Made by a program: the position numbers and the translations under genes. Shown piece after piece: positions 6,209-19,577 of a DNA stretch of 20,000 nucleotides (within the stretch, counting starts at the first letter, position 1; the number at the start of each line of letters is the position of its first letter). The notes beneath the pieces are model-generated. The model did not search any database, was not told where the DNA came from, and was given only the letters and a program-made list of their open reading frames with translations. Source of the DNA: an uncultured virus (IMG/VR IMGVR_UViG_3300028888_000117) (lineage: Duplodnaviria; Heunggongvirae; Uroviricota; Caudoviricetes); IMG/VR virus record IMGVR_UViG_3300028888_000117, one strand, 5' to 3'.

Positions 6209-6313
6209 ATGATGCAACTCAGTCAACATATTGAATTTATTTTTGGATCATCTTTTTCAGGTGAACCTTGTGGATTGGGTGTAAATAAAGTTTCTGGTTA
6301 TACTGAAATATAA
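6209..6313 (+). CDS. Leader peptide of tRNA array 1 (34 aa, MMQLSQHIEFIFGSSFSGEPCGLGVNKVSGYTEI)
   Basis: ATG after an A-rich leader, TAA at 6311-6313; overlaps the antiterminator strand; codons 1-25 match the array 1 anticodon set. Confidence 0.8.
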   Translation: MMQLSQHIEFIFGSSFSGEPCGLGVNKVSGYTEI

Positions 6314-6644: not shown

Positions 6645-6734
6645 TAAGATATTTATAAAGTTAAACGTTGCTGTGAAAGCAATGACTAATCAGTTTCCAT
6701 TAAAGATTACTAATACTTTTGAGAGTGGATGTTC

Positions 6735-6827
6735 GGAGGTTTACCCAAGTTGGTGAAGGGGGCACACTGCTAACGTGCTAGGTCGGTGTAACCCATCGGC
6801 GCGGGGGTTCAAGTCCCTCAGCCTCCG
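6735..6827 (+). tRNA. tRNA-Ser(GCT)
   Basis: Class II cloverleaf, loop CTGCTAA, G73. Confidence 0.9.
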
Positions 6828-7060
6828 CTAAATATTCAAATATATCCGTAAGGAGTCAGAAGTTTAAATCTTTCCCTGGGTTTGAACTGCCTGGGTGGCA
6901 GAATGTTGAATGATTGCAATATTTGAATATTAAAATAGATATATGTCTGTATCACTGGTGTGATTAATAATTTGAAGCGTGGTTCGAAACCGCAACTAGG
7001 ATAGTTCAATTCTTGACTGGGCATGGGTGCAATATAATTATTCTTATATCTATTTAAATT

Positions 7061-7146
7061 GGAGAATGAACTGCGGCGGCCCGCAGGACTGTCTTGAAAA
7101 CAGCTCGTTCGGTGAAACGGATTGGGATCGACACCTACTTTCTCCG
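7061..7146 (+). tRNA. tRNA-Ser(TGA) with 8/4 fold (allo-tRNA-like)
   Basis: Acceptor GGAGAATG/CTTTCTCC, 6-bp D stem CTGCGG/CCGCAG, loop CTTGAAA, 4-bp T stem TGGG/CCTA. Confidence 0.75.
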
Positions 7147-7151
7147 CAAAC

Positions 7152-7327
7152 AAATCTACTAGTGTAGGATAGAGTTACTTCATAAGAAAGCTGATAACTT
7201 CTCAAAATTTTTCCAGTAAATGGAATACGGGTTCGAGTCCCGTCCATGGCATCGTGCCGCGGTGGTGAAATTGGTATACACGAAATTTTTATCTAATAAT
7301 TACTTTATTCATTAATTCTGTAGATTT
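7152..7327 (+). ncRNA. Y-RNA (YrlA)-like RNA with circularly permuted tRNA domain
   Basis: Closing stems AAATCTAC/GTAGATTT and GGATAGAGT/ACTTTATTC enclose a T arm (ACGGG-TTCGAGT-CCCGT), a loop-closed acceptor (CCATGGCA-TCG-TGCCGCGG) and then a D arm. Confidence 0.65.
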
Positions 7328-7334
7328 TATATTT

Positions 7335-7421
7335 GGTCAGGTGCCCGAGTCTGGTTGATGAGAGTAGTCTGCAAAACTATTGGAAGAAATTCCCGCGTGG
7401 GTTCAAATCCCACCCTGGCCT
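7335..7421 (+). tRNA. tRNA-Cys(GCA), long variable arm
   Basis: GTAGT-CTGCAAA-ACTAT, U73; variable hairpin GGAA-GAAA-TTCC. Confidence 0.85.
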
Positions 7422-7422
7422 C

Positions 7423-7563
7423 AAAATTATCTGGTGTATATAAGAGTTACTTCACGATTTTTAATTAAGTGGTTTTAATGCAATTTTTCCAGAATTGAAT
7501 CCTTGGTTCGAATCCAAGAGAATCGATATTTATTTATACTTTTATAGCTGTTCCGATAATTTT
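7423..7563 (+). ncRNA. GAGTTACTTC-stem RNA copy 2 (contains a T arm only)
   Basis: AAAATTATC/GATAATTTT closure, motif at 7444-7453, T arm CTTGG-TTCGAAT-CCAAG. Confidence 0.55.
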
Positions 7564-7568
7564 ATTTT

Positions 7569-7643
7569 GGGTCTGTGGTGTAGGTGGTTGTCGCTCGTCG
7601 GACTGAAAATCCGAAGGCACTTGTTCAACTCAAGTCGGACCCA
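7569..7643 (+). tRNA. tRNA-Phe(GAA)
   Basis: TCGGA-CTGAAAA-TCCGA. Confidence 0.88.
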
Positions 7644-9259: not shown

Positions 9260-9337
9260 CAATATAAGGTGACGAATTGGTGTCAGGTAGTCCGAAAGTA
9301 CAAGCCCACATTACGGGAAGAGCCTTATATTTATAAT

Positions 9338-9411
9338 TGGGCTATGCTGTGTAACGGTTAGCACGTCAGCCTTTGAAGCTGAAGGTCTGGGTTCGAATCC
9401 CGGTAGCCCAA
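9338..9411 (+). tRNA. tRNA-Gln(TTG)
   Basis: TCAGC-CTTTGAA-GCTGA; U1:A72. Confidence 0.9.
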
Positions 9412-9413
9412 CT

Positions 9414-9511
9414 AAGTAAGTAATATTTGAAGAGGATAGGTTCGACTCCTTAGTGTAACGGTAGCACACTTCGTATATATTTAATGCATTAATATATAAA
9501 ATTACTTACTT
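9414..9511 (+). ncRNA. Permuted tRNA-elbow mimic (T loop directly followed by a D arm)
   Basis: GGTTCGACTCC then TAGTGTAACGGTAGCAC inside GAAG/CTTC and AAGTAAGTAAT/ATTACTTACTT stems. Confidence 0.5.
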
Positions 9512-9517
9512 TTTAAT

Positions 9518-9591
9518 TGGGGCATAACTCAGTTGGTTAGAGTGTCAATCTGATACGTTGAAAGTCCCGTGTTCGAGTCACGGTGCCCCAA
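9518..9591 (+). tRNA. tRNA-Ile(GAT)
   Basis: TCAAT-CTGATAC-GTTGA. Confidence 0.9.
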
Positions 9592-9594
9592 CTT

Positions 9595-9825
9595 TGGGAA
9601 TTAGCAAAATGATTCGTATGAAAGTTATTATTTATAAATATTTGCGTAAGGCCGCAATTAGACTGAAAGTTCTCGAGATCAATAATATTTATAATAATGA
9701 TAAGTAATGACAGAAAGATAAAGTAATAAGAATAGCTAACTTACGAAATTGAATTTGAAAATGCGAACATACTGCGCTACCCGTGGGTGGGTAGAGGTCC
9801 TGTGAAAGTCAGTGGTTCCCGACCA
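9595..9825 (+). ncRNA. Pro-like tRNA scaffold with a ~160-nt insertion in the D region
   Basis: Acceptor TGGGAAT/GTTCCCG followed by ACCA; arm CTACC-CGTGGGTG-GGTAG; degenerate T arm. Confidence 0.4.
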
Positions 9826-9826
9826 T

Positions 9827-9902
9827 GCCGAGGTATACCCTCGCTCTCATAAGGCGTTGAAAGGTTAGTTGGTTCACGTGAGTTCGACCCTCACCCTCGG
9901 TA
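9827..9902 (+). tRNA. D-armless tRNA-like gene, anticodon CAT
   Basis: Acceptor GCCGAGG/CCTCGGT, CGCT-CTCATAA-GGCG, variable arm TGAA-AGGTTAGTTGG-TTCA, T arm GTGAG/CTCAC. Confidence 0.65.
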
Positions 9903-9930
9903 CATTTATATTAATATAAAGATATTATAT

Positions 9931-10003
9931 GCGGCTGTCGTATAACGGTTTATTATACTCGCCTTCCAAGCCAGTGACGTGGGTTCGACTCCCATCAGCC
10001 GCT
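9931..10003 (+). tRNA. tRNA-Gly(TCC)
   Basis: CTCGC-CTTCCAA-GCCAG (C:C mismatch), U73. Confidence 0.88.
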
Positions 10004-10178
10004 CGCATTAGTAATGGAGTTTGGTAACGAAGGGTGCTCCCAAGGTTCTCCACGTTAAATCCTTCATAGGAGTTTGAATGATTAATTTCATCAAATATTA
10101 AAAACTGTCTTTAATGTGGGCACCGTTTTATATTAAAATTTAAATTATATTAATGATATAATACGGTGCCTATATAAT

Positions 10179-10254
10179 GCATCTGTCGTATAACGGTTCA
10201 GTACGTTCGCCTTCCAAGCCTAAGACGTGGGTTCGACTCCCATCAGATGCTCCA
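10179..10254 (+). tRNA. tRNA-Gly(TCC), weak anticodon stem, CCA encoded
   Basis: TTCGC-CTTCCAA-GCCTA; ends TCCA. Confidence 0.8.
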
Positions 10255-10266
10255 TTCTTAATTGAT

Positions 10267-10340
10267 GGCCCTCGGGACAGATTGGTTTAAGTCGTCGGTC
10301 TCTCAAGCCGGAATAACGGGTTCGAATCCCGTGGGGGCTA
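10267..10340 (+). tRNA. tRNA-Glu(CTC)
   Basis: TCGGT-CTCTCAA-GCCGG. Confidence 0.9.
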
Positions 10341-10430
10341 CACGGCAGGTTTAACAAGGTTTCCTGCGTAATTTATAATTACTTAAGGTTAAGAAAAAAT
10401 GTTGTGACTAATAGGAGAGACTATTTATTT

Positions 10431-10561
10431 CGCGGAGTGGTGAGATTTTTTAATACTTTATTCGCTGTTGCTTCAATATGAATGCTGTAGATTAGAGTTA
10501 CTTCGGTATACACGCTTTTATTTGGAAAAAGATTATGTTGGTTCGAGTCCAACCTCCGCGA
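10431..10561 (+). tRNA. tRNA-like gene (loop ATTTGGA, TTG as written) with the GAGTTACTTC module in its D loop
   Basis: Acceptor CGCGGAG/CTCCGCG, D stem GTG...CAC split by ~60 nt, CTTTT/AAAAG arm, T arm GTTGG-TTCGAGT-CCAAC. Confidence 0.65.
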
Positions 10562-12129: not shown

Positions 12130-12198
12130 CGGGGGTTAGCTCAACGATAGAGCCATGGATTTTACTATGAGACGGTTGTTTAACTCAATCACCCCTGA
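12130..12198 (+). ncRNA. tRNA-like element with a 6-nt anticodon loop (ATTTTA)
   Basis: Acceptor CGGGGGT/ACCCCTG, D arm GCTC/GAGC, T arm GGTTG-TTTAACT-CAATC. Confidence 0.55.
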
Positions 12199-12208
12199 CA
12201 AATTAAAT

Positions 12209-12267
12209 TGGTTACGCAGTAAATGGTACATGTATGCTAGCTATTTGGTTCGATTCCAACGTAACCA
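12209..12267 (+). ncRNA. Miniature tRNA-like element (~59 nt) without a proper anticodon arm
   Basis: TGGTTACG/CGTAACCA, GTA-AATGG-TAC, TTGG-TTCGATT-CCAA. Confidence 0.5.
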
Positions 12268-12291
12268 TCTATAAATGTTGATATTAATAAT

Positions 12292-13078: not shown

Positions 13079-13200
13079 TTTTATTAATGAACTTTATAAA
13101 ATTTCTTAATTGTATCAATATATAATACTGAACTTATCCGGTGATAGCGCGCGATAAAGAATTACAGAATGGTTCAACTCCATTAAGTTCAGTATATTTT

Positions 13201-13380: not shown

Positions 13381-14553
13381 ATGATACAATTATGTGAATA
13401 TATGTCAGAATATTCTTGTGATAGAGCAATATTCTTAGAAACAGTTAATTTAATTGCTGATGAACTTATAACAGAAAGTTTTCAATCATCAATATTGACT
13501 AGTTTAGCAAAAGCTATTAAAGACGCAGAATCTAAACATGCTGAAAATGATAAAGCAGCAGAAAAACGTTATAAAGAAGAAGGACGTGGTTATTCTCCAA
13601 CAAAAACTGCTAAATCTTTTGCTTCTATATTTGGTCCATTAACAGAAACATCAAGATATGGAAATAATAAAAAGACAGGTATTCGTGGTTTAAAATGGTC
13701 AGAAATTAAAGATGATGACTTCCAATATTTTGAAGCAGATTCTGAAGATTGGGATAAGAAATTCATTAAGTTATTAAGATCTGTATATCAAAAGAAAATA
13801 ATGGCTGATGTAATTTGTTGTAAACCAGGAACTAAAGATGTTGTTTGTTTCATAAAAGGTTATGTAAAAACTTTAGGAGACGTAAGAGTATATTATTTCC
13901 CAACAACAGGATATAAATCTGGTGTACAAGAAAAGACTGCAACTAAATATAAGTATGGAGAACGCTCATTAAAACTTGATGAAGCTATTGATGTTGTTTC
14001 AGGATTAGACATATATTTCCTTGAAATCAAAGAAGATATGGTTAAAGACTATGATGTACTTCATAAAGAACGTGAAGAATCTCAAAAGGGAGTTGTTAAT
14101 CTTGATGAAAGAAGTTTACGTGATCTTCTTAAGCAACAGCAAGGTCGTTATCGTGCAATGGTAAAAGAAATTAAAGCACAGAAACTTCAATCAGATCCAA
14201 ATATTTTATTTGATGAAATCAAAAAGACTAATGATGAAGTGGTTGCTTTATTCCAAAAGGTAATGTCTAAACCAGAAAACATGGATCAACGTTTTAGCTT
14301 AGATGATCTTATGCGTTATGTATCTTATGCTTATGAACAATTTTATAAGGCAATGAAATATAAGAGAGATTCAGAACGTACAAAGGAACGTTATAAGAAA
14401 CGTGCTGAAGAAAAGGGAGAAGAATGGGATGAAGAAAAATTTAAAGACTGGGATTATGATGCATCTTCATCAGATGAAGCTATACGTGATGCTAAGGAAT
14501 ATGTACAGAAAGTAAAGAAAATGATCTCAGAAATTGAAGAAAACTTAAAATAA
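13381..14553 (+). CDS. Hypothetical protein (390 aa), charged helical/coiled-coil C-terminal half
   Basis: Long ATG ORF between the two arrays; no family recognised. Confidence 0.9.
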   Translation: MIQLCEYMSEYSCDRAIFLETVNLIADELITESFQSSILTSLAKAIKDAESKHAENDKAAEKRYKEEGRGYSPTKTAKSFASIFGPLTETSRYGNNKKTGIRGLKWSEIKDDDFQYFEADSEDWDKKFIKLLRSVYQKKIMADVICCKPGTKDVVCFIKGYVKTLGDVRVYYFPTTGYKSGVQEKTATKYKYGERSLKLDEAIDVVSGLDIYFLEIKEDMVKDYDVLHKEREESQKGVVNLDERSLRDLLKQQQGRYRAMVKEIKAQKLQSDPNILFDEIKKTNDEVVALFQKVMSKPENMDQRFSLDDLMRYVSYAYEQFYKAMKYKRDSERTKERYKKRAEEKGEEWDEEKFKDWDYDASSSDEAIRDAKEYVQKVKKMISEIEENLK

Positions 14554-14659: not shown

Positions 14660-14773
14660 ATGCAACAAGTCAATACATATAAACAAATATTAGACCAAAT
14701 ATTAGATAATAATACTTGGAATAAGAATTATGCGTTATGTAAAGACCACTTGCATGGAGATTCTGAGATATAG
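14660..14773 (+). CDS. Leader peptide of tRNA array 2 (37 aa, MQQVNTYKQILDQILDNNTWNKNYALCKDHLHGDSEI)
   Basis: ATG after an A-rich leader, TAG at 14771-14773; overlaps the antiterminator strand; codons 1-32 largely match the array 2 anticodon set. Confidence 0.8.
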   Translation: MQQVNTYKQILDQILDNNTWNKNYALCKDHLHGDSEI

Positions 14774-16883: not shown

Positions 16884-17063
16884 CTGAACATGGCTAATTC
16901 AATATCAGTGAAAACTCCAGCTGCAATTAATGGAAGAATAGTAACTGTGAGAATTAACAAATCATTACTTATTGCAGAAGTAATTTATCATCTGGTGTAA
17001 TGGTAGCATACCGGGATCCCTCGGAGGAAAGGTTCAATTCCTTATTGATAGCAAATATTTTAT

Positions 17064-17517: not shown

Positions 17518-17702
17518 CAAATAGAAATTAATAATTTATAAATATAAAATTTAAAACATATGAAAACAATGAAACGAAAACGTTAGTTGTGTATGTTTCC
17601 TGAGAGAAATTGGTATTAAGCAGTTTAACCAATTAGAAGCATGCACGTTAAATCAAAATTAAACGCAAATTATTATTAAGTTTAATACAATTTATTGTGT
17701 AT

Positions 17703-18025: not shown

Positions 18026-18222
18026 CTCTTGCATGCCATGCAAAACTTATGGAGAAATTTACAGCTACGGTTGATATTGATAGTTCGAAATATTAAATAT
18101 CTTATCCATAAGTACTTATAATGATAAAGTAATGACGGTAGAAGTCCGTGGTAACTACTTTGACGCTATATTACTTGAGATAACAGAACGGATTATCCTT
18201 TATAAGTCAAACCGAAGCTTTT

Positions 18223-18536: not shown

Positions 18537-18620
18537 GGGGGTTTATTCCGTAAGTGGTAGCGGGGATGACTGTAAATCATCTGGCTTCGGCCTCGGGGTG
18601 TTCGACTCACTCAGCCCCCA
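18537..18620 (+). tRNA. tRNA-Tyr(GTA)
   Basis: GATGA-CTGTAAA-TCATC; class II. Confidence 0.9.
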
Positions 18621-18706
18621 CAATAATATTATTAATAAATTTAAAAGTTAAGAGTTATGAAGGATTATTATTATTGCTATAACGAAGATGATAGTAATTA
18701 TAGCAA

Positions 18707-18802
18707 GCCGACGTAACCGAAGCGGTCCGTAAAACCGTTCTGCTCTATCAAATCTCGGTATTGGCCTCTAGCAGTAAGTAGGTTCGAATCCTACCGGCGG
18801 CA
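18707..18802 (+). tRNA. D-armless tRNA-like gene, loop CC-GTA-AA
   Basis: GCCGACG/CGGCGGC, GCGGT/ACCGT arm, variable stem CTGCT/AGCAG, T arm GTAGG-TTCGAAT-CCTAC. Confidence 0.6.
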
Positions 18803-19222: not shown

Positions 19223-19294
19223 CGCGGAAGCAGTGTGTAGGTCGCATACAAGGCTCATAACCTTAGTGGTGGAGTTCAATTCTCACTTCCGCAA
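19223..19294 (+). tRNA. tRNA-Met(CAT), initiator-like
   Basis: C1:A72 mismatch; AAGG-CTCATAA-CCTT. Confidence 0.8.
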
Positions 19295-19498
19295 CAATAT
19301 TTTAATCAGGACGGAGTTAATCAATGAGAGTACAATGTGAGTAGTAGGGTTACATCTACAGGTTATGGTGAAAGCAAAGGAAATTGATTACGATGGTGGT
19401 ACAGGTATTAGGAGGTGTACAACTCGCGAAATATCCGAGGCCGGAGGATAGTTTAGTGAACCATATCACGGAAGACTAGGTGGGTTAAAATATTATTT

Positions 19499-19577
19499 AC
19501 AGCGGTATCGTCACAGTCTTATACACTGACATTAACCACGTAATTGGTGTATGTGGGTTCGAGTCCCACCCGCTGTA
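19499..19577 (+). tRNA. D-armless tRNA-like gene, anticodon TAT (Ile AUA reader?)
   Basis: ACAGCGG/CCGCTGT, CAGT-CTTATAC-ACTG, variable region containing ACGTAATTGG, T arm GTGGG-TTCGAGT-CCCAC. Confidence 0.65.

Follow-up and report, generated by a model that had tools for sequence, protein, structure and literature searches.

The three genes described here and their relatives are very likely working tRNAs with a rewired core, judged from comparative sequence analysis. Canonical residues ~9–20, that is the 5' strand of the D stem and the D loop, would be transposed to the 3' side of the anticodon arm, and the normal L shape would probably be rebuilt by this different wiring. The genes lie in a 20,000-nt stretch of DNA (the window, by which we mean all of the DNA analysed) with two tRNA arrays on the + strand beside long unannotated ORFs, and 40 ARAGORN calls. 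A 106-aa ORF of the window matched 10 IMG/VR loci on contigs of 93–435 kb, three of which (L001, L002 and L003) are syntenic with the window across the tRNA arrays; these matches suggest that the source is most likely a jumbo phage with rumen-type relatives. RNA runs containing the window region were mostly from sheep and cattle gut. None of five window proteins had a PHROG match, and the 1643-aa window protein had no match among GenBank phages.

Architecture and detection of the three genes

A preliminary description had noted three genes without a D hairpin and with otherwise normal arms, and parsing confirmed these at 9827–9902 (gene 1), 18707–18802 (gene 2) and 19499–19577 (gene 3), all on the + strand. 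Each consists of a 7-bp acceptor, U8-A, a strand of 5–6 nt, an anticodon arm with a 7-nt loop and a long 3' segment, followed by a 5-bp T stem, a TTCRANY loop and A73. None of the three window genes encodes the CCA end. With 7–8 nt from the acceptor to the anticodon stem, the D hairpin is absent between positions 9 and 26, and the partner of the short D-region strand is the segment 3' of the anticodon arm. Genes 1 and 3 have U33 and a purine at 37 in the anticodon loop; position 33 is C in gene 2. U33 and R37 are present in nearly all members of the family, and the discriminator matches the anticodon.

Standard tools largely pass over these genes. ARAGORN called none of the three in the window and none of 168 compact members collected below. 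With the Rfam tRNA model, gene 3 (31.1 bits) was the only one of the three that was scored, and six homologues reached 26–31 bits, around the cut-off of 29; gene 1 had no Rfam match up to E=5. The tRNA-like domains of tmRNA and bacterial Y RNA have no anticodon arm. No match to either (RF00023, RF02553) was found over the three genes or the six homologues, all of which have a full anticodon arm. Folding of single sequences gave z values of −0.2, −1.1 and −2.1 for the three genes and the structure was not seen; as this approach was uninformative, the evidence for structure is comparative.

Census of relatives

At least 215 distinct relatives were collected, comprising 168 of the compact type (like the CAT gene, gene 1), 38 of the Tyr type (gene 2) and 9 like the TAT gene (gene 3). 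Members are 75–96 nt long, have a 7/5 acceptor–T branch throughout, and their predicted identities take in Ile, Met (or Ile2), Arg, Val and Tyr. In the compact type the search patterns left the bases of the D' helix (the pairing of the D-region strand with the 3' segment) free; G18-G19 was fixed by most patterns. Loci that failed to parse were left out. Parsing depended on the acceptor, anticodon and T stems, and D' pairing was never a requirement. With a CAT-anchored pattern, 23 loci parsed as the rewired architecture among the 121 viral loci listed. When an anticodon-blind pattern for the 3' segment was used, 102 of the 119 viral and 13 of the 120 GTDB loci listed could be parsed. The first set held at least 118 distinct sequences, 110 compact and 8 of other types; the anticodons of the 110 were TAT (57), CAT (18), GAT (15), ACG (10), TCT (8), CCT (1) and TAC (1). 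A held-out metagenome scan found the scaffold in 68 of the 117 loci listed, yielding at least 58 new distinct genes and adding CCG and GCG anticodons. Scans for the Tyr type gave 30 distinct genes (58 of the 114 loci listed) and then 8 more out of 9 new candidates (24 of the 119 loci listed), and the type of gene 3 is represented by at least 9 distinct genes (17 of the 119 loci listed). By this census the putative rewired tRNAs are a widespread, unannotated class in phages.

The compact type

Gene 1 (anticodon CAT at 9848–9850) is a compact member. On the basis of covariation, its D' helix is formed by ACC at 9837–9839, in the role of canonical residues 23–25, and GGT at 9863–9865, in the role of 10–12. 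The relocated D loop, placed at 9867–9877 by the 15:48 covariation and by the coupling of position 20 to the anticodon, contains A14, G15, G18-G19 (9871–9872) and position 20 (9873), and a linker leads from it to C48 at 9877, which would pair with G15. With model R1, whose training alignment includes it, gene 1 scored 77.5 bits vs at most 28.4 for canonical tRNAs. An identical copy is present in L001.

The compact consensus reads acceptor, TA, T-xyz-C, an anticodon arm with 4 bp and a mismatch, NGAAA, x'y'z', TA-R-TTGG, 5–6 nt and the T arm. The D' triplets xyz and x'y'z' are Watson-Crick paired in all 110 distinct compact genes of the first set, in 10 combinations (mean 22.5 and maximum 41 after shuffling), and in 56 of the 58 held-out genes. 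In a 94-row alignment 98.0% of the cells of this structure are paired, vs 34–44% in slid controls. RNAalifold, unaided, recovered the same D' helix. The helix is nested and extends the anticodon hairpin, so no pseudoknot is needed in gene 1; in this respect the pseudoknot claimed in the preliminary description fails for the compact type, and it holds for the Tyr type, in which a variable stem crosses the D' helix. The CCT/AGG register proposed for gene 1 was not borne out either, being present in 50 of 110 compact homologues vs 110 of 110 for ACC/GGT. That register and a variable stem TGAA/TTCA, both rejected for the compact type, reached 80.9% and 68.9% paired cells in the 94-row alignment; the TGAA/TTCA stem occurs in 3–4 of 110 compact homologues and has no two-sided change. 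One G-C opposition of the rejected stem is invariant (94/94) and may be a 1-bp remnant of it.

The moved block behaves as a D loop in several respects. In the 110 compact genes, counts inflated by the kinship of the sequences, positions 15:48 are A:T in 73, G:C in 27 and other in 10, a Levitt pattern; T48 occurs in 52 of the 58 held-out genes, where the search pattern fixed a motif with A15. A20, which is part of the D loop's variable pocket, is described as the main determinant for ArgRS (PMC9976931). It was present in 19 of 19 members with Arg anticodons vs 1 of 91 others in the first compact set and in 16 of 16 vs 0 of 42 in the held-out set (pooled, 35/35 vs 1/133), counts to which kinship again contributes. 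Every Ile, CAT or Tyr member counted has A73. When column pairs were ranked by corrected mutual information, the first 17 were helix pairs and the next were 35-20, 35-73 and 15-48. Tree-aware tests, of low power, gave 4 independent pairs on supported branches for 15:48 (none opposite, p 0.25) and 2 for Arg/A20 (none opposite, p 0.5). The positions of G18:U55 and G19:C56 are invariant on both sides, and since the GG was fixed by the patterns, covariation cannot arise there. U8, A14, R15:Y48 and the canonical TTCRANY T loop are kept in the family. At the level of sequence, three features of the rewired family are demonstrated by covariation: the D' helix, the pairing of 15 with 48, and a link between the base at position 20 and an Arg anticodon.

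Because C3-G70 and A5-U68 are present in gene 1 and C4-G69 is absent, its predicted identity leans, with modest preference, to elongator Met over Ile2; C3-G70 and A5-U68 are given as Met determinants in PMC9976931. Two other CAT variants have the same acceptor stem as one Prevotellaceae CAT tRNA, in which C4-G69 is present. The slot of gene 1 holds a canonical CAT tRNA in L002 and L003. An argument for its function had been drawn from the short ORF that leads the array, in which an internal ATG was matched to gene 1 as the only Met-type RNA. This argument is weak: the ATG is codon 2, the leader also has an ATA codon, and the ATG is absent from the L002 homologue, yet a CAT tRNA occupies the same L002 slot. 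The window also has an initiator-type CAT tRNA at 19223–19296. The corresponding argument for gene 3, from the use of ATA in the leader of array 2, is weak as well.

The Tyr type and the type of gene 3

Gene 2 (anticodon GTA at 18729–18731; C33, one acceptor mismatch, so 6 of 7 acceptor pairs) scored 99.1 bits with model R2, in whose training alignment it is included. The complement ACCGA/TCGGT had been given correctly: ACCGA at 18716–18720 and TCGGT at 18755–18759 form a 5-bp D' helix spanning 18716–18759. A variable stem is formed by CTGC at 18740–18743 and GCAG at 18771–18774 (18740–18774), and the alignment places the D-loop motif ATTGG (18760–18764) inside this stem together with the 3' strand of the D' helix.

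All five D' pairs are kept in 30 of 30 Tyr-type genes, with changes on both sides at three pairs; over the three free pairs the helix has 10 variants (mean 9.9 and maximum 19 of 30 after shuffling). A sixth D' pair, paired in 17 of 30, is not conserved and was rejected. The 4-bp variable stem has 99.2% of its cells paired, with its 3' strand partly fixed by the search pattern, and one pair is changed on both sides (4/30). When the 3' strand of the variable stem was left free, both helices were kept in 8 of 9 new candidates. The variable stem crosses the D' helix and the Tyr type is thus a pseudoknot, with 97.8% of the cells of the whole structure paired. In the compact and Tyr alignments two-sided changes are found in every helix. 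The preliminary description had proposed that the D stem and D loop are rebuilt from the segment 3' of the anticodon arm, and that a lack of covariation among homologues would speak against it; the D-region strand pairs with the 3' segment across the relatives, and the covariation strongly supports the proposal. Features of Tyr identity are retained, namely A73 (30/30), G1-C72 (27/30) and the variable stem. C33, as in gene 2, occurs in 3 of the 30 rows.

Gene 3 is a putative rewired tRNA-Ile (anticodon TAT at 19520–19522) of an intermediate type with an 8-nt linker. It scored 55.1 bits with model R1, and it is not in the training set of that model. The complement named for it, CGT/ACG, also proved correct, with CGT at 19509–19511 and ACG at 19538–19540 in the D' helix; the D-loop motif AATTGG is at 19542–19547. 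The helices of this type are CGT/ACG, CGC/GCG and one mismatched variant, and a 2-bp CA/TG stem is fixed by the search pattern. In L002 the slot of gene 3 holds a canonical tRNA-Ile(TAT) with the same anticodon loop. In five window ORFs, 108 of 239 codons for Ile are ATA, which fits a tRNA with a UAU anticodon.

Carriers among phages and cellular genomes

Cultured phages carry the family as well. The crAss-like phage tikkala has rewired Tyr and Ile(GAT) genes, both unannotated and the latter with two acceptor mismatches, and a canonical Tyr or Ile(GAT) tRNA was not found in it. The same rewired Tyr gene occurs, unannotated, at MH675552.1:4141–4235 in crAss001, between Lys and Phe; the paper on this phage counted 25 tRNAs for 17 amino acids (PMC6235969). 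Streptomyces phage Mildred21 has unannotated rewired Ile(GAT) and Arg(ACG) genes; its sole canonical Arg call is CCT, and its Arg genes of the rewired kind are ACG, TCG, which is filed as Phe, and a looser TCT, filed as 'OTHER'. The GenBank record NC_042008.1 (L607) gives the name tRNA-Phe(gaa) to a rewired Arg(TCG) gene at 29368–29443, and tRNA-OTHER to a looser one for Arg(TCT) at 24380–24454. The genome G005 has no canonical Tyr call. In the tRNA regions of the related phage G004 (L623–L626), a tRNA with a CTA anticodon was seen among 65 ARAGORN calls; it is possibly an amber suppressor or a sign of recoding.

Taken as predicted tRNAs, the rewired genes stand in for canonical isoacceptors at syntenic slots, and in the cultured phages they fill gaps. 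Redundancy also occurs: a canonical tRNA-Tyr (18537–18621) adjoins gene 2, both forms are present in G003 and A3Wally, and L003 has a canonical Ile(TAT). TilS was found in none of 3 phage records searched.

At least 13 GTDB loci carry members of the family, several of them in tRNA arrays; some of these loci may be phage DNA. The GTDB loci include one on a contig of 1.67 Mb from Chryseolinea sp. H1M3-3. In the cellular sampling, 2 of 121 family genomes and 1 of 151 phylum genomes were positive, the centre genome included, with 31–39 candidates scored per genome. All 5 cellular carriers tested keep TilS, and the cellular UAU gene would therefore be accessory.

Genomic setting of the arrays

Short ORFs at 6209–6313 and 14660–14773 (+) lie one ahead of each array, and their codons largely match the downstream tRNAs; that at 6209–6313 is conserved in L001 (3273–3377) and L002 (3447–3560). 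Both may act as leaders of the attenuation type, sensing a shortage of tRNAs. The third such mini-ORF, MKTMKRKR (17560–17586), precedes the Lys tRNAs. The initiator-type CAT tRNA at 19223–19296 (+) has a C1:A72 mismatch and is missed by ARAGORN and by a whole-window Rfam scan; a local scan gave 30.4 bits. No Pfam or PHROG match was obtained for a protein of 390 aa that is encoded between the arrays (13381–14553, +) and has 98 relatives.

Several non-coding elements accompany the genes. Just upstream of gene 1, 9567–9826 is conserved at 79–91% identity in L001–L003 and is without an Rfam match at E values up to 5; it is possibly a novel structured RNA or a processing element. Within this stretch a AATGATAAGTAATGAC motif occurs at 9696, and again at 18120. 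Upstream of gene 3, a variable non-coding element at 19300–19495, also without an Rfam match, has a GGTGGTACAG core that is kept in L001–L003. Motifs like GAGTTACTTC are repeated within hairpins at 7171, 7443, 8596, 8741, 10494, 17356 and 19931, and these hairpins flank or enclose odd tRNA-like elements, e.g. at 7455–7526 and 10431–10561; no Rfam family other than tRNA reached its gathering score in these regions of the window. Elements of 60–69 nt at 12130–12198, 12209–12268, 13129–13192 and 16985–17052 have acceptor and T arms with irregular middles and were not called by ARAGORN. In L001, directly after the copy of gene 1, there is an AT-rich ORF-like insert with Cys-rich motifs (~6730–7600) that is absent from the window; as a guess, it is a candidate homing endonuclease.

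Part of the region 9300–10400 is contained in 14 RNA runs, one of which contained 0.80 of the sampled words; as RNA runs can contain DNA, this is only a hint of expression. A promoter scan revealed nothing specific.

Proposed fold and alternative explanations

In the proposed fold U8 would be joined by a single A to the D-stem 3' strand, and the chain would continue into the anticodon arm. After this arm a short linker, NGAAA, would lead to the D-stem 5' strand, then to A14-R15-G18-G19-N20, to Y48 and to the T arm. U8, A14 and A21 lie together in the core of canonical tRNA, and a shortcut from U8 is for that reason plausible; the role of A21 would be taken by the A after U8 or by an invariant A before position 48. 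The moved block of the Tyr type would be inserted in the loop of the retained variable stem, creating the pseudoknot. The GG is expected to dock on the T loop with the L shape kept, and host synthetases, EF-Tu and ribosomes would use the RNAs.

Decayed pseudogenes or chance look-alikes would account for genes that ARAGORN misses and that fold weakly as single sequences, but for the family as a whole this reading is refuted, with next to no probability left to it, by at least 215 distinct sequences, by the 98.0% and 97.8% of cells paired, and by two-sided changes in every helix. It is improbable that the RNAs are decoys of the same fold, which soak up synthetases or tRNA-cutting defence enzymes without decoding. 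The frequent redundancy with canonical isoacceptors and the C33 of gene 2 would suit a decoy, as would reports that phage tRNAs counter tRNA-targeting defences (PMC11555353; PMC12445682). Nearly all members, however, combine a 7-nt anticodon loop, U33 and R37 with a discriminator that matches the anticodon; several phages have no Tyr, Ile(GAT) or CGN-reading Arg gene other than the rewired one; and rewired and canonical tRNAs swap at fixed slots.

The family is known from its sequences, and the D' pairing might be thought only to lengthen the anticodon helix, with the GG strand as a loose linker and no canonical elbow. There is a mitochondrial precedent in human mt-tRNA-Ser(GCU), whose D-replacement strand is paired with the V loop, extending the anticodon stem; that RNA is described as having no tertiary core and a remodelled T loop (PMC9427863), whereas the rewired family keeps U8, A14, R15:Y48 and a canonical T loop, with position 20 tied to ArgRS identity, and we regard this explanation as very improbable. 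Scrambled genes, whose transcripts are cut and religated into an ordinary cloverleaf like those of permuted tRNA genes, would give the same covariation, and several carrier phages encode RNA ligases. When the block was moved back in silico, ARAGORN called 167 of 168 compact members with their own anticodon vs 0 of 168 in native order, a result that is only partly discriminating, as 107 of 168 were called in the shuffled control. Such processing would require three cuts and three joins within one molecule and leave a variable region of 8–9 nt, and an intron or spacer was seen in no member; the permuted genes described in PMC4033280 swap whole halves via a BHB motif and come from archaea and algae only. 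Religation into a cloverleaf is thus given hardly any weight.

Comparison with known tRNAs

Read as tRNAs with a rewired core, the members resemble the canonical cloverleaf (RF00005, class I and II) in the 7/5 acceptor–T domain, the TTCRANY loop, the 7-nt anticodon loop, U8, A14, R15:Y48 and G18-G19, and in the identity elements A20 (Arg) and A73, G1-C72 and variable stem (Tyr). They differ from it in having no D hairpin; the 5' strand of the D stem is placed, together with the D loop, 3' of the anticodon arm. In mammalian mt-tRNA-Ser(GCU), too, the D arm is replaced by a short strand that lengthens the anticodon helix by pairing with the variable region (PMC9427863; type III in PMC7609411). 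That RNA is mitochondrial and is described as having neither D loop nor tertiary core (PMC9427863), whereas the rewired family keeps the D-loop bases elsewhere and is found in phages and some bacterial genomes.

In permuted tRNA genes of algae and Thermofilum the order of the tRNA parts is also changed. By definition, however, the 3' half of such a gene precedes the 5' half and BHB splice sites are present, and splicing of the swapped halves restores the cloverleaf (PMC4033280); in the rewired family an internal block is moved, the acceptor strands are in normal order without a spacer, and the mature RNA would most likely be a non-cloverleaf. Allo-tRNAs are non-standard tRNAs that likewise come from metagenomes and phage tRNA clusters, but they have 8/4 or 9/3 branches and keep the D stem-loop (PMC5389517), unlike the 7/5 members described here, in which the connectivity is changed. 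Mini-HisT, an artificial tRNA without a D arm, is accepted in bacterial translation by the HisRS, EF-Tu and ribosomes of E. coli; it is simply truncated, with no relocated D loop (PMC11551756).

The same paper, of 2024, presents all known bacterial tRNAs as cloverleaves and arm-less tRNAs as mitochondrial only (PMC11551756), and in the available text of the review PMC7609411 the terms 'phage', 'pseudoknot' and 'permut' are absent. No description of the rewired fold was found in the searchable literature; with most subscription journals, figures and bioRxiv supplements outside that scope, we allow a small chance that the fold is already in print. On the present evidence the proposed rewired family is a new architectural variant of tRNA.

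Biological meaning

Why phages keep such tRNAs may be answered in different ways. There is nearly an even chance that they escape host enzymes that cut or block tRNAs; phage tRNAs are reported to counter tRNA-targeting defences also in PMC10264068 and PMC11464382. It is possible, if somewhat doubtful, that they are a neutral topological isomer that has spread through tRNA arrays, and a tuning of AUA decoding seems unlikely. Taken as a whole, we think it likely that these RNAs are a natural class of non-cloverleaf tRNAs in bacterial translation, carried by many phages and missed by standard finders: a topological isomer in which the moved D-loop block supplies the elbow and the base read by ArgRS, and which may aid escape from defence. 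If this is true, another path of the chain can also give the L-shaped core, a result relevant to the evolution of tRNA and to the question of which features synthetases, EF-Tu, RNase P and modification enzymes actually recognise. Phage tRNA inventories would be corrected, with Tyr, Ile and Arg tRNAs that appeared to be missing now present, and the rewired tRNAs would provide a natural alternative tRNA scaffold.
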